Virus record (IMG/VR): IMGVR_UViG_2698536628_000019
From: a virus
Taxonomy: Duplodnaviria > Heunggongvirae > Uroviricota > Caudoviricetes
Direction: 5' to 3' (one strand)
Length of the DNA: 7,350 nucleotides
Part shown: in pieces, positions 1,254-4,502 of the stretch
How the letters are laid out: each line of letters begins with the position of its first letter
Numbering within the stretch: the first letter of the stretch is position 1
Notes under the pieces: generated by a model
What the model saw: the letters and a program-made list of their open reading frames with translations, nothing else
Told to the model about the DNA's origin: nothing
Database searches by the model: none
Translations under genes and position numbers: made by a program

Positions 1254-1311
1254 AAAAAGGGCGGCAGAGCAGCCACGGAGTAAAACTGATACCGCCAAAC
1301 GTCACCAGAAA
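1254..1311 (-). ncRNA. dicF: DicF-type small regulatory RNA (Hfq-dependent sRNA processed from the dicB operon transcript) with 3' intrinsic terminator
   Basis: Minus-strand sequence tttctggtgacgtttggcggtatcagttttactccgtggctgctctgccgccc followed by ttttt matches the E. coli DicF sequence as I recall it, with about one mismatch. The GGCGG...CCGCC stem plus U-tract forms its terminator. Flanked by YdfC-like upstream and DicB-like downstream, the canonical order. Not verified by alignment. Confidence 0.75.
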
Positions 1312-1942: not shown

Positions 1943-2299
1943 TTACTCGAGAGGAAATTGGTTATGAATACAATCAAGTTTTCTTGCCCAGAATGTGGTG
2001 GCGAAGTCTTTGACACATCCTTTAAACCGCATGGCTCTGACAGTTTCGCGGGAGCCATCTGCAAAAATTGTGGTCACCTTGTAACTGAAGATGAGTCCTC
2101 GCAGTTTGATGACGAAATCGTTGACAATATCTTCGGTGCACTCACCAGAGACTTTCTGAAGTAAAGGCGCATACCGCTTAGTTACCGCTCTGATAATTCT
2201 TACCTGTCCGGCAATGGCGCTGATATCAATATAAAGCGCCATCGCTGTTTCTTTGCTGATCCCTGGATGCCTTCCATTCTGATGTTTGACTTCGCCCAC
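1943..2299 (-). CDS. Alternative antisense ORF (118 aa, GTG start), probably a shadow ORF
   Basis: Track ORF 1943-2299 (-). GTG start with AGAGGA ~8 nt upstream and correct orientation for the left operon, but it contains five rare Arg codons (AGG/AGA/CGA) and no recognisable family features. Listed only because orientation fits the operon. Confidence 0.2.
   Translation of the reverse strand: MGEVKHQNGRHPGISKETAMALYIDISAIAGQVRIIRAVTKRYAPLLQKVSGECTEDIVNDFVIKLRGLIFSYKVTTIFADGSRETVRAMRFKGCVKDFATTFWARKLDCIHNQFPLE
1964..2164 (+). CDS. Small zinc-ribbon protein (66 aa, CxxC-x25-CxxC, acidic C-terminus), function unknown
   Basis: Track ORF 1958-2164 (+). Most plausible start is ATG 1964 with GAGGAAA SD at 1951-1957, spacing 6. 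Two CxxC pairs (CPECGG ... CKNCGH). Codon usage looks ordinary. Overlapped in antisense by the 118-aa ORF 1943-2299, so one of the two is probably not real. Confidence 0.45.
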   Translation: MNTIKFSCPECGGEVFDTSFKPHGSDSFAGAICKNCGHLVTEDESSQFDDEIVDNIFGALTRDFLK

Positions 2300-2480
2300 T
2301 GAGAAATCCTCTGTTTCCCCTTAACGCCGGGGTAGCGGAACAAAAAACCTGCTGCATAGTTAAACGTAATCCCCGCCGTCATGTTCATACGCCTCAGGCT
2401 GGCTACTTAACCCCTGACCACTGCCGGGTAACTCGAAGTATTGCCCTGCGTTCTGTGGGGCGGGGTGGGTTTATGGATAC

Positions 2481-2534
2481 AATTTACAAATTAAAATTTA
2501 ACTGGTCAACATGTTTATTATTAAATTTGTAATT
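2481..2534 (-). promoter_or_regulatory. Putative leftward (dicB-operon-type) promoter flanked by inverted operator-like half-sites
   Basis: On the minus strand: -35 TTGACC (plus 2504-2509) and -10 TAAATT (plus 2481-2486), 17-bp spacer. Inverted half-sites ACAAATT (2486-2492) and AATTTGT (2524-2530) bracket it. The 14-mer TTAAATTTGTAATT (2521-2534) is identical to 3762-3775 in the repressor/cro intergenic region. Promoter call is by eye against sigma-70 consensus. Confidence 0.4.
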
Positions 2535-2542
2535 GCGGGCTG

Positions 2543-2571
2543 TTGCATCAGTCCCAAAATGGGACTACTAT
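2543..2571 (+). promoter_or_regulatory. Putative higBA promoter with palindromic operator in the spacer
   Basis: -35 TTGCAT (2543-2548), 17-bp spacer, -10 TACTAT (2566-2571). Perfect inverted repeat AGTCCCA-AAA-TGGGACT at 2550-2566 lies within the spacer/-10. No SD upstream of ATG 2578, and the predicted transcription start falls at or near the ATG. Confidence 0.4.
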
Positions 2572-2577
2572 ACAGTT

Positions 2578-2880
2578 ATGAAGATTATCTCAGTTAAAAC
2601 ACTCAGGGATTTTTGGGCGGAGAATCCTGATGCAGAACAACCGCTAAGGGCATGGGTGGATGAGGCGGCAAAAGCTGACTGGAAAAGCCCAGCAGACATT
2701 AAGGCACAATACCGAACGGCCAGTATATTGAAAAACCGGCGCGTGGTATTCAACATAAAAGGTAATCATTACCGTTTAATTGTTGCAATTGCGTATCAGC
2801 GAGGATGGGTATTTGTTAAATTCATCGGAAACCACAAGGAATACGATGCTATTGATGCTGATACCATCGAACTGGAGTAA
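2578..2880 (+). CDS. higB: Type II toxin, HigB family (RelE/ParE-fold mRNA interferase), 100 aa
   Basis: Track ORF 2533-2880 begins at TTG; first ATG in frame is 2578 (MKIISVKTLRDFWAENPD...). C-terminal segment VVFNIKGNHYRLIVAIAYQRGWVFVKFIGNHKEYD matches the recalled E. coli HigB/YgjN motif (VFNVGGNELRVVAMVFF...HKEYD). Toxin-first order with antitoxin 2 nt downstream. Confidence 0.8.
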   Translation: MKIISVKTLRDFWAENPDAEQPLRAWVDEAAKADWKSPADIKAQYRTASILKNRRVVFNIKGNHYRLIVAIAYQRGWVFVKFIGNHKEYDAIDADTIELE

Positions 2881-2882
2881 GC

Positions 2883-3242
2883 ATGAACATCAAACCTATT
2901 CGTACAGAGCAAGATTATGAAGCCGCGTTGCGTGCTGTTGAACCCATGTTCGACAATGAGCCCGAAATTGACACGCCTGAGGGGGATTTTTTTGAGGTGA
3001 TGTGTTTGCTAATAGAGGAATATGAAAAAAAACATTATCCCATTGAGCCACCATCCCCAATTGAAGCTATAAGATTTCGCATGGAACAGCAGGGGCTGAC
3101 TGTGAAAGATTTGGAACCCGCAATTGGGAAAAAAAATCGGGTTTATGAGGTGTTGAATGGTACCAGAAGCCTTACGTTACCAATGATTCGCCGTCTTCAT
3201 AATCAATTTGGTATCCCCCTGGAAAGCCTGGTTGGATTATAA
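2883..3242 (+). CDS. higA: Type II antitoxin, HigA family (C-terminal XRE-type HTH), 119 aa
   Basis: Track ORF 2883-3242. SD GGAG at 2873-2876. C-terminal HTH region GLTVKDLEPAIGKKNRVYEVLNGTRSLTLPMIRRLHNQFGIPLESL resembles recalled E. coli HigA/YgjM. Starts 2 nt after the higB stop. Confidence 0.8.
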   Translation: MNIKPIRTEQDYEAALRAVEPMFDNEPEIDTPEGDFFEVMCLLIEEYEKKHYPIEPPSPIEAIRFRMEQQGLTVKDLEPAIGKKNRVYEVLNGTRSLTLPMIRRLHNQFGIPLESLVGL

Positions 3243-3258
3243 AATCTGCTAGTCATTT

Positions 3259-3306
3259 GCCTGATGCTCGTTCCAGAAAAGGAATGCATCAGGCAGTTTT
3301 GTTTTT
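3259..3306 (+). terminator. Rho-independent terminator for higBA, overlapping the stop codon of the convergent repressor gene
   Basis: Stem GCCTGATGC (3259-3267) / GCATCAGGC (3286-3294) with an internal UUCC/GGAA extension, then U-tract AGTTTTGTTTTTC (3295-3307). The minus-strand repressor stop codon (rc of 3289-3291) lies inside the right arm. Confidence 0.6.
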
Positions 3307-3681
3307 CTGCCGCAGTAACTCTTCAAGTTTCCGTTTATAGAAATCGCGTTTTTGCTCCATATCACGAATGATCTGCTCTGCGTCGCTTTGAGGTAACTCA
3401 TCTAAAAGCGATATGATTTTTCGTTGTTGTTCTGTAAGTTGCGGTTGGTTGTCATTACTGGATACAGCCATTTTATCGCCGAGAGTTTCTTCTTCCATAA
3501 AGAACCAATGGACGGGATGTTGTGAGAGCTCTGCTAATTTTTCCAGTTTATCCATTCTTGGCATCACGCCTTTCAACCAACCTTGCACGGATTGGGGTTT
3601 TACACCAAGACGTCTTCCCAGCTCTGACTGGTTTATATTCAATTCCTGCAACACCTGCTGAAGGCGTTTTACAAAGATCAT
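3289..3681 (-). CDS. DicA-like prophage repressor (XRE-family HTH with C-terminal helical domain), ~130 aa
   Basis: Track ORF 3289-3687 starts at GTG; likely start is ATG 3681 (MIFVKRLQQVLQELNINQSELGRRLGVKPQSVQGWLKG...), with GAGGGG SD upstream. N-terminal HTH and a C-terminal segment (LTEQQRKIISLLDELPQSDAEQ...KRKLEELLRQ) resembling recalled DicA (LSPKELELLELFNALPESEQDTQ...NKLFEELLKARQ). Divergent from a Cro-like gene. Confidence 0.8.
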   Translation of the reverse strand: MIFVKRLQQVLQELNINQSELGRRLGVKPQSVQGWLKGVMPRMDKLEKLAELSQHPVHWFFMEEETLGDKMAVSSNDNQPQLTEQQRKIISLLDELPQSDAEQIIRDMEQKRDFYKRKLEELLRQKNKTA

Positions 3682-3687
3682 CACCAC

Positions 3688-3807
3688 CCCTCGTAAACTA
3701 GTTCCGCGATCCTACAGAAAAAATTGATAAGTGGCATTACAAATAGAAGTTGAAATTTAAATTTAAATTTGTAATTATCGGTGTCATCGTAAAGTTCGGA
3801 GGGAAAC
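3688..3807. promoter_or_regulatory. Repressor/cro intergenic switch region: divergent promoters with operator-like inverted repeats
   Basis: 9-bp inverted repeat ATTACAAAT (3735-3743) / ATTTGTAAT (3766-3774) separated by 22 bp. Tandem AAATTT x3 (3752-3769). Rightward candidate promoter TTGAAA (3749-3754), 17 bp, AATTAT (3772-3777). GGAGGG SD before ATG 3808. Confidence 0.55.
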
Positions 3808-4068
3808 ATGCAAAAAAGTACTCAAGTGAAAATCCTGTCAATAATGAGCCAATCAGAATTAGGGCGTCGTCTTGGTAAAACACCGCAAACCATAAGTGGG
3901 TGGTTTAAAAAACGAGTGCCAGCGGAGGAGGTTATACCAGCATGTGAGGCGCTTGACTGGGGAGTAACTCCGCATGAATTGCGCCCTGATAAATACCCTA
4001 ATCCAACCGATGGTTTACCTGTTGAGTATCAGGCTAACGCACAAGCAGCGGCGGGAGTTGATTCATGA
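3808..4068 (+). CDS. Cro-like HTH regulator, YdaS/DicC family (86 aa)
   Basis: Track ORF 3808-4068. HTH segment SQSELGRRLGKTPQTISGWFKKRVP and ...GVTPHELRPD resemble recalled YdaS (Rac) / DicC (Qin). Divergent from the repressor. ATGA overlap with the next gene. Confidence 0.8.
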   Translation: MQKSTQVKILSIMSQSELGRRLGKTPQTISGWFKKRVPAEEVIPACEALDWGVTPHELRPDKYPNPTDGLPVEYQANAQAAAGVDS

Positions 4069-4502
4069 AAATCAAGCATGAGCACATCCGCATGGCGATG
4101 AATGCGTGGCTGCTTTATCCGAGGGTAGGGCGCAAAAAAATCGCTGATGATATAGCGACAGCATATTTTGAGCTTGAAATGACTTATCCACCAATGCATG
4201 ACACCTCTACGACAGAGGGTATTGGATTGAACATACAAAATATTTTTCGCTGGCTTGAAAAGGATACGCCTGATGCTGTTGAAAAAATTCAGGCACTAAT
4301 TCCAGCTATCCTGACTGTTCTTCCGCGTGAACTGCGTTATCACCTCAGTATTTTTGACACTGTTGAGCGCCGTGCATTACTGGCGGCCCAGGAAGCGTTG
4401 AGCACGGCAATTGATGCGCATGATGATGCAGTCCAGGCAGTTTACCGGAAAGCGTATTTCAGCGACGGCGGGTCATCCGGCGAGTCTGTTGTGGTGCATT
4501 GA
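4065..4502 (+). CDS. ydaT: YdaT-like protein (CII-like regulator family, 145 aa)
   Basis: Track ORF 4065-4502. Starts MKIKHEHI... and carries the segment KIQALIPAILTVLPRELRYHLSIFDTVERRALLAAQEALSTAIDAHDDAVQAVYRKA, which I recognise from Rac-prophage YdaT. Translationally coupled to the Cro-like gene (start overlaps stop). Confidence 0.75.
   Translation: MKIKHEHIRMAMNAWLLYPRVGRKKIADDIATAYFELEMTYPPMHDTSTTEGIGLNIQNIFRWLEKDTPDAVEKIQALIPAILTVLPRELRYHLSIFDTVERRALLAAQEALSTAIDAHDDAVQAVYRKAYFSDGGSSGESVVVH

Follow-up and report, generated by a model that had tools for sequence, protein, structure and literature searches.

The repeated words and the genes around them

The window analysed here, a stretch of 7,350 nucleotides of viral DNA (Caudoviricetes; IMG/VR record IMGVR_UViG_2698536628_000019), belongs to a Qin/Rac-like lambdoid prophage of non-O157 Shiga toxin-producing Escherichia coli (STEC). 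It was 100% identical to a prophage in the STEC strain E2865, and the same 1.5 kb was found in 148 of 5426 complete E. coli genomes, mostly of non-O157 STEC. Along the window, ydfC and the DicF RNA on the minus strand are followed by a zinc-ribbon open reading frame (ORF) on the plus strand, intergenic region A (2472-2578), higB and higA on the plus strand, the gene of a 130-residue helix-turn-helix (HTH) repressor on the minus strand, intergenic region B between the repressor and cro (3682-3807), and, all on the plus strand, a YdaS-family cro gene and YdaT, DnaT-like and P-like genes; dicB, ydfC and DicF lie on the left of the prophage. An earlier note, made from the sequence alone, had pointed out a 9-bp inverted repeat and a tandem of AAATTT words in region B, together with a 14-mer repeated upstream of higB. 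Our analysis suggested that these repeated words are probably operators of the prophage repressor and Cro, of which one set lies at the repressor/cro switch and another at the early promoter for leftward transcription, in a lambda-type layout.

The arms of the inverted repeat are ATTACAAAT at 3736-3744 and ATTTGTAAT at 3767-3775; the words and the 22-bp gap between them were correctly described, while the coordinates first given for them (3735-3743 and 3766-3774) were each one base low. Likewise, the 14-mer TTAAATTTGTAATT is located at 2521-2534, as reported, and at 3763-3776 rather than 3762-3775. The chance occurrence of such words was assessed with 2000 dinucleotide-preserving shuffles of the two AT-rich intergenic regions only. 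A word of at least 14 bases shared by both regions arose in 0 of the 2000 shuffles, in which the longest reached 13, so the shared 14-mer is clearly non-random. Perfect inverted-repeat arms of 9 bases or more were seen in 1.9% of the shuffles of region B (38 of 2000), which makes the inverted repeat marginal when taken alone. With up to three mismatches allowed, the 14-mer had nine matches in the whole window against 0.98 expected, and eight of the nine were inside the two regulatory regions. An inverted copy in region A had been overlooked, with 2484-2501 complementary to 3757-3774 at 17 of 18 positions. The 7-mer TTTGTAA/TTACAAA occurred five times on both strands of the 7350 bp, four of them within regions A and B. 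The fifth (3669-3675, minus strand) was set aside as a coding coincidence; it falls in the first codons of the repressor (MIFVK) and has no partner hexamer.

The low G+C of both regions (about 31-36%) and the frequency of inverted repeats in the shuffles would suit an origin of the words by chance in AT-rich sequence, or as a recent functionless gene-conversion scar. This origin is extremely improbable in view of the absence of a shared 14-base word from every shuffle and the conservation of the motif positions across genera with flanks diverged to random levels, as described below.

The AAATTT words are present three times in tandem as noted, starting at 3753, 3759 and 3765, but the run (3753-3770) overlaps the right arm and is thus not strictly between the arms. 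As a part of the operator the tandem did not hold up, being polymorphic within E. coli at 3761, 3762 and 3765 and missing in other clades. A functional tandem was not supported, given this lack of conservation, and the tandem appears incidental.

Proposed operators and promoters of the repressor/cro switch

Our results favored, as the best model of the operator unit, a 19-bp pseudo-palindrome YTRCAA-N7-TTGYAR with the core ACAA-N7-TTGT. Three predicted units and two predicted promoters occupy region B; scores are from a position weight matrix (PWM).

3756-3774: O1 operator, TTTAAA-TTTAAAT-TTGTAA; top PWM match in the window (23.2), position conserved in seven clades
3737-3755: O2 operator, TTACAA-ATAGAAG-TTGAAA; clearest palindrome, with the highest hexamer-only score (16.3)
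3712-3730: O3 operator, CTACAG-AAAAAAT-TGATAA; position kept in all clades
3750-3778, plus strand: PR (cro promoter), -35 TTGAAA (3750-3755), -10 TAATTA/AATTAT (3772-3778) preceded by TG; from the consensus promoter scan
3709-3737, minus strand: PRM-like repressor promoter, -10 TAGGAT (3714..3709) and weak -35 ATGCCA (3737..3732) abutting O2

The strong outer half-site of O1, TTGTAA (3769-3774), is the core of the right arm of the inverted repeat, and the outer half of O2 is the core of its left arm. O1 reaches across the PR spacer into the -10, of which it includes the first 3 nt, and the inner half of O2, TTGAAA, also serves as the PR -35, while its outer edge touches the PRM -35. O3 lies 6 bp beyond O2, on the side away from O1; its overlap with PRM takes in the spacer and the first 3 nt of the -10.

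Region B was aligned from seven clades. The mean pairwise identity was 0.81 in the hexamers and 0.68 in the N7 spacers, compared with 0.51 in the gap between O3 and O2 and 0.30-0.37 in the flanking untranslated regions (UTRs), where 0.33 is expected from composition. The motifs hold their place in both regions where the flanking UTRs are saturated with change. O2 was invariant in 12 distinct sequences of the E. coli group, with variable flanks. In the other clades both of its hexamers were retained (TTGCAA/CTGCAA at the left, TTGCAA/TTGAAA/TTGTAA at the right) and the 7-bp spacer was free, which gives the pattern TTRCAA-N7-TTGMAA over the seven clades, with the spacers ATAGAAG, TTTTTAT, TTATGAA, TTAATAT, ATATAAT, and ATATACC. 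O1 followed TTTAAA-N7-YTGYAA, abutting O2. Among the 12 E. coli-group sequences, O3 had one spacer change and O1 varied at 3761, 3762, and 3765 and once at 3772 (TTGCAA); non-operator bases adjoining the operators varied freely. O3 included a perfect 17-bp palindrome, TACAGAAATTTTCTGTA, in Serratia and was CTACAG-N7-TTGTAA in Sodalis. N7 was the modal spacing of the CAR and YTG cores and the sole spacing common to the right (OR) and left (OL) operators. When a PWM built solely from the sites of non-E. coli clades was run over the window, the five sites proposed here (three right and two left) were among its six best matches, and all of the 14 best matches were in the two regions.

Both elements of PR (TTGAAA-17-AATTAT with TG upstream) were conserved over the clades. 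The PRM -10, read from the alignment, was kept in all seven clades as TAGGAT/TAGAAT/TAGTAT/TATGCT. The consensus promoter scan did not find PRM at 3709..3737; the candidate that it offered (-35 ATGACA at 3787..3782 with -10 TAAATT) was rejected in favour of the conserved TAGNAT at 3714..3709, as its -35 is destroyed in the VL46 variant and unconserved elsewhere. As in a lambdoid switch, the divergent repressor and cro genes have back-to-back promoters in a 126-bp gap, and several copies of one motif, O1, O2, and the weakly scoring O3, cover PR and PRM.

The Phlomobacter and Arsenophonus endosymbiont loci L013 and L016 had 7-bp deletions within the O1/PR spacer, which shorten the distance from -35 to -10 to about 10 bp. 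This suggests decayed switches in endosymbiont prophages.

The two 9-mers might instead be halves of one long operator (with centres 31 bp apart on the right and 41 bp apart on the left), bound by one oligomer over three to four helical turns. Their perfect match, the 40-bp imperfect palindrome at 3736-3775 with arms 80% complementary, and the outer spacings of OR and OL, which differ by about one helical turn, are all in line with such a site. However, the outer-to-outer spacing is unconserved (26 bp in OR versus 37-40 bp in OL) and varies between clades, a partner lies at a constant N7 from each strong half-site, O2 forms a complete palindrome by itself in every clade, and the HTH domain of the repressor resembles repressors that bind 14-18 bp sites as dimers. 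A single long operator is improbable on these grounds. The proposal that the 9-mers are half-sites for the switch regulators was supported by the motifs holding their position across clades with an invariant HTH, but they would belong to the abutting O2 and O1 and not to one operator, the inverted repeat being formed by the outward-facing strong half-sites of the two.

Candidate operators at the leftward promoter and the higBA cassette

Region A contains two further candidate operators, a predicted leftward promoter, and the promoter of higBA.

2484-2502: OL1 operator, TTACAA-ATTAAAA-TTTAAC; PWM 19.1, between the -35 and -10 of the leftward promoter
2514-2532: OL2 operator, TTTATT-ATTAAAT-TTGTAA; located upstream of the -35 of both PL (by 5 bp) and higBA (by 10 bp)
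2481-2509, minus strand: PL-like leftward promoter of the ydfC-dicF-dicB operon, -35 TTGACC (2509..2504), 17-bp spacer, -10 TAAATT (2486..2481); from the promoter scan
2543-2571, plus strand: higBA promoter with HigA operator, -35 TTGCAT (2543-2548), palindrome AGTCCCAAAATGGGACT (2550-2566), -10 TACTAT (2566-2571)
2578-3242, plus strand: higB (2578-2880) and higA (2883-3242); Pfam HigB_toxin (113.7 bits) and HTH_3; cargo between the repressor and OL

The distal 14-mer makes up most of OL2 (the spacer and the strong half-site), and OL is about 1.24 kb from the right operators. The earlier idea that the distal copy is a second operator at the left-operon promoter was supported by the OL motifs, which are kept around this promoter with or without higBA. 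The OL1 form YTACAA-ATTAAAA-TTTAAN was conserved in E. coli, Salmonella, and Arsenophonus and was looser in Sodalis and Serratia, and OL2 followed TTTATY-N7-TTGTAR across the relatives with and without higBA. In PL, GTCAA of the -35 and a TAGATT-type -10 were conserved in all clades. Since the Sodalis, Arsenophonus, and Serratia loci without higBA also keep OL1 and OL2 around GTCAA, the distal copies would be a part of the phage switch and not of the toxin-antitoxin (TA) cassette. OL1 and OL2 flank the -35 TTGACC and thus form a second operator cluster at a leftward early promoter beyond the repressor gene, as in lambdoid phages. The strong half of OL2 is flipped in Serratia (TTACAA-N7-TTAAAT), a change that is tolerable for a pseudo-palindromic protein site and not for a directional promoter element.

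This last point bears on whether the repeated word is mainly a promoter signature, that is, a TG-extended -10 with an AT-rich spacer reused at sigma-70 promoters, with no protein operator. The strong half-site covers the first three -10 bases in identical register at PR, PL, and PRM (TTG-TAATTA, TTG-TAAATT, and CTG-TAGGAT, the -10 following the hyphen), and the TTGYAA half-site resembles a -35 element, the role that the inner half of O2 has in PR. But the strong halves of O2 (left half, 3737-3742) and OL2 (2527-2532) lie outside the predicted promoters with no usable -35 at the right distance, and the flipped OL2 of Serratia leaves no TGTAAT, yet its TTACAA half-site stays. In addition, pairs of hexamers at N7 around freely varying spacers are what a dimer site would show, and the recognition helices of both the repressor and Cro are invariant in the clades that keep the operators. 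We consider a mere promoter signature quite unlikely.

The proximity of OL2 to higBA and the HTH nature of HigA could also make the distal 14-mer a part of the higBA promoter/operator, read by HigA or HigBA and unrelated to the phage switch. Plasmid homologues of higBA (73-81% identity) share the higBA palindrome and -10, which were invariant in the VL46 variant too, and lose similarity upstream of about 2550-2575. They carry GTCCCA-N3-TGGGAC once or twice; in the plasmid loci L003 and L004 this palindrome lies between the -35 and the -10 TACTAT, and the 14-mer is absent. The 14-mer was not found to travel with higBA in other contexts, and it was rejected as a HigA operator because it is absent from the plasmid higBA loci and kept by the Sodalis, Arsenophonus, and Serratia prophages without higBA. 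Its attribution to HigA is scarcely credible, and higBA is, from these comparisons, apparently an independent cargo with its own promoter and HigA palindrome.

In the prophage, the distal HigA palindrome of the plasmid homologues is replaced by the candidate phage operator OL2. The 10-bp spacing from OL2 to the higBA -35 was kept in nearly all E. coli variants and one Salmonella relative, although the bases themselves varied freely. A double duty of OL2, through which the lysogeny repressor or Cro would also modulate higBA transcription, is conceivable but rather unlikely; if true, it would link the action of HigB to whether the prophage is lysogenic or induced, for example in prophage stabilisation or abortive defence.

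A hot spot for cargo is the slot between the repressor and OL, which is filled by higBA in E. coli and one Salmonella and is empty in Sodalis and Arsenophonus; S. diarizonae has a PLD-family gene there, S. Javiana a PaaA2-like gene and a TM2-domain gene, and Serratia two small ORFs. The slot was located in four relatives as follows.

L005: 4506-5780
L047: 3454-4049
L049: 3414-4038
L007: 4536-5203

The region from 2472 to about 3950 is, judged by sequence matches, a mosaic immunity cassette, because other genomes match only outside it: more than 1000 other E. coli genomes and several heteroimmune phages match only to 2471 on the left and resume within cro or ydaT. PL is predicted to start at about 2474, which is the place of the mosaic junction (2471/2472). 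In phage Tritos, the leader of the PL transcript is likewise present up to this junction, after which come its own leftward promoter and operators. The immunity region was present in none of the 50,697 records of a phage collection, in which only the flanks matched, and a scan of genome contigs gave only five loci, all of Arsenophonus or Phlomobacter.

The repressor and the Cro-like protein

The two regulators are encoded divergently on either side of region B.

3289-3681, minus strand: DicA-like repressor of 130 residues; Pfam HTH_3, with an N-terminal HTH_XRE domain, a disordered linker, and long C-terminal helices
3808-4068, plus strand: Cro-like YdaS-family regulator of 86 residues; Pfam YdaS_toxin (PF15943), 34.6 bits against a cutoff of 30

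Pfam found only HTH_3 in the repressor and no S24 peptidase domain; an HTH_XRE domain is joined to a short helical C-terminus. The repressor had 22% identity to DicA of K-12 over the full length and scored 49.9 bits with the NCBIfam DicA model NF007257, below the cutoff of 101, which places it outside the DicA subfamily; it is DicA-like in architecture only. In the AlphaFold model, five helices make up a confident N-terminal domain, residues 62-83 form a disordered linker, and residues 84-129 contain further helices. In Foldseek, the N-terminal model superposed on the DNA-binding domains of the P22 c2 and 434 repressor/Cro proteins at 1.2-2.0 Å over about 60 residues. A sequence search of the PDB gave as its sole match at E <= 0.001 a LexA-annotated HTH protein of Eubacterium rectale (2kpj, E = 0.00048), and its matches to the phage 434 repressor and Cro were non-significant (E 0.13-0.85).

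Homologues of the repressor at 50-94% identity were found in Salmonella, Sodalis, Serratia, Arsenophonus, and Phlomobacter. Since the HTH is invariant across the homologues of seven clades (QSEL.RR..VKPQSVQGWL), they are expected to read the same DNA. The Cro HTH is also conserved across clades (SQSELGRRLGK.PQTISGWF) and is 58% identical to that of the repressor over 26 residues, with nearly identical recognition helices (PQSVQGW in the repressor and PQTISGW in Cro). A 48-nt inverted repeat, 71% complementary between 3589-3636 and 3844-3891, corresponds to the HTH-coding segments of the repressor and cro; because it spans both, the divergent proteins carry paralogous DNA-binding helices.

In the proposed mechanism, a dimer of the DicA-like repressor would bind the 19-bp operator through its HTH, and the Cro/YdaS-like protein presumably binds the same operators, given its recognition helix. 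The repressor at O1 and O2 would shut off cro and the replication genes and may also aid its own promoter PRM, and occupation of O3 by Cro or by excess repressor would turn PRM off. At OL1 and OL2, the repressor would silence the left operon ydfC-dicF-dicB. Any looping between OL and OR, and the order in which each protein fills the sites, would be further parts of this scheme. Since the repressor has no peptidase domain, its induction probably needs an antirepressor, as with DicA, for which induction via an antirepressor was reported (bioRxiv 10.1101/2023.04.14.536235). Relatives of the prophage have genes of the Rha/Ash type in their left operon.

In locus L005, an operator-like palindrome, CTACAG-TTTTTTG-TTGTAA, was observed at 807-825 (window orientation), immediately ahead of a small ORF, after which comes a DUF2335 gene. 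It is about 3 kb from the repressor and may be an extra target of the same repressor family.

Points that weigh against the operator model

Several results weigh against this interpretation. The PWM test lacks full independence, as the sites compared across clades are orthologous. With the hexamers only, the PWM scored O2 at 16.3, O1 at 14.7, OL1 at 10.8, O3 at 8.8, and OL2 below 7, and O3 and OL2 were no better than chance matches such as that of 10.0 at position 256; because these scores fail to separate them from the background, the status of O3 and OL2 rests on positional conservation. A convincing palindrome was seen in every clade for O2 only, and in three clades for O3, while O1, OL1, and OL2 each consist of a strong half-site and a TTTAAA-like weak half. 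The strong half-site shares bases with a -10 at three sites out of the five, always in one register (TG-TA...), so promoter constraint explains a part of the conservation. The gap between OL1 and OL2 ranged from 11 to 13 bp among the clades, which speaks against strict helical phasing, and OL was not found within the fetched flanks of two Salmonella loci, L005 and L047. The operator reading of this immunity type is, throughout, one from conservation and analogy.

Neighbouring features

The left operon includes one annotated RNA gene.

1259-1310, minus strand: DicF small RNA gene; Rfam RF00039, 75 bits

In the window, 104 consecutive N (1097-1200) lie just upstream of DicF. The zinc-ribbon ORF of the ECs_2282 family (1964-2164, plus strand) is on the strand opposite the predicted PL transcript and takes the place of ydfA/ydfB found there in the VL46 variant and in K-12 Qin. 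The leader of this transcript (2340-2471, minus strand) has no annotated gene. It was common to more than 1000 E. coli genomes of other immunity types and to heteroimmune phages, and segments of it (GCTGGCTACTT..., GGTAACTCG.GGTATTGCC) were also seen in Sodalis and Arsenophonus. The Rfam scan found only DicF and gave no match for the conserved leader, which may be an RNA or antitermination-type element.

The higBA -10 TACTAT ends 6 nt ahead of the annotated higB ATG (2578), and no Shine-Dalgarno sequence is present in 2566-2580 of the window. The prophage higB mRNA may be leaderless because of this short distance and the missing Shine-Dalgarno sequence; the plasmid homologue L003 has a normal higB leader with AAGGAA. 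A perfect inverted repeat of 10 bp, TGCCTGATGC...GCATCAGGCA, followed by GTTTTGTTTTT, is found at 3258-3295, between higA and the repressor gene where these converge, and overlaps the repressor stop codon. It looks like a higBA terminator, which the terminator scan missed because of its 18-nt loop.

Comparison with known switches

The closest described system is CP-933P (Sp12) of E. coli O157:H7, in which PaaR2 is the CI analogue, YdaS is Cro, and YdaT is CII, with OR and OL/PL operators (PMC8630535, PMC9986795). PaaR2 and YdaS footprint overlapping OR operators, and a PL with matching -35/-10 elements and three similar operators lies beyond the TA module (PMC8630535). The window prophage resembles it in its divergent repressor and YdaS-family cro followed by YdaT, in the repeated operators over PR and PRM, in the second operator set with PL past the repressor-side cargo, in the TA module between the repressor and PL, and in a repressor without a RecA-cleavage domain. 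YdaT binds TTGATTN6AATCAA at the ydaS/ydaT junction (PMC9986795), and TTGATTCATGAAAATCAA at 4058-4075, at the cro/ydaT junction, is an exact match to this published site in the same place as OM of CP-933P. The repressor family and the operator sequence differ, the CP-933P operators being 18-bp palindromes with the half-site GTTTAGTAA. The TA genes of CP-933P belong to the repressor operon and depend on PaaR2, whereas the higBA genes of the window converge with the repressor gene and are served by a promoter and a HigA palindrome of their own. The operators of CP-933P were shown by binding, and those described here are predicted from sequence comparison.

The Qin DicA/DicC switch of E. coli K-12, with dicCp and dicBp, has the same layout (PMC3441716; bioRxiv 10.1101/2023.04.14.536235). 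It shares with the window prophage a repressor of about 130 residues made of an HTH and a helical C-terminal part, at the low identity given above, and the left operon ydfABC-dicF-dicB. Its dicBp is like PL, with the -35 TTGACC, one operator in the spacer, and one upstream. In contrast, the operator words are unrelated, Qin Oc being the 20-bp site TTGTTAGTCATAACTAACAA, and Qin has no cargo between dicA and dicBp.

As in textbook lambda, there are three right operators, two over PR and one over PRM, with a left set at PL, and the immunity cassette has mosaic boundaries and cargo between cI and OL, which is rexAB in lambda. Unlike lambda, O1 and O2 abut (19 bp centre to centre versus 23-24 bp), only two left operators are recognisable, and no S24 peptidase domain is present. 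In its fold, the HTH agrees with the repressor domains of 434 and P22, and the operator core ACAA-N7-TTGT resembles that of phage 434, which we take to be ACAA-N6-TTGT. By these comparisons, the locus is a lambdoid OR/OL operator system of the ordinary kind whose immunity type is uncharacterised.

The proposed map gives five candidate sites, three phage promoters, and a consensus half-site for this immunity type, which about 150 complete E. coli genomes carry and to which relatives are found in Salmonella, Sodalis, Serratia, and Arsenophonus. To one side, the switch would govern the cell-division inhibitors dicF/dicB, and to the other, the replication genes, with the HigBA toxin-antitoxin cassette in a rexAB-like cargo slot. 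It is the second natural example, after CP-933P, of a TA module inside a YdaS/YdaT-type immunity region, here a self-autoregulated one, and the two prophages form a useful pair for asking whether TA modules stabilise immunity cassettes.

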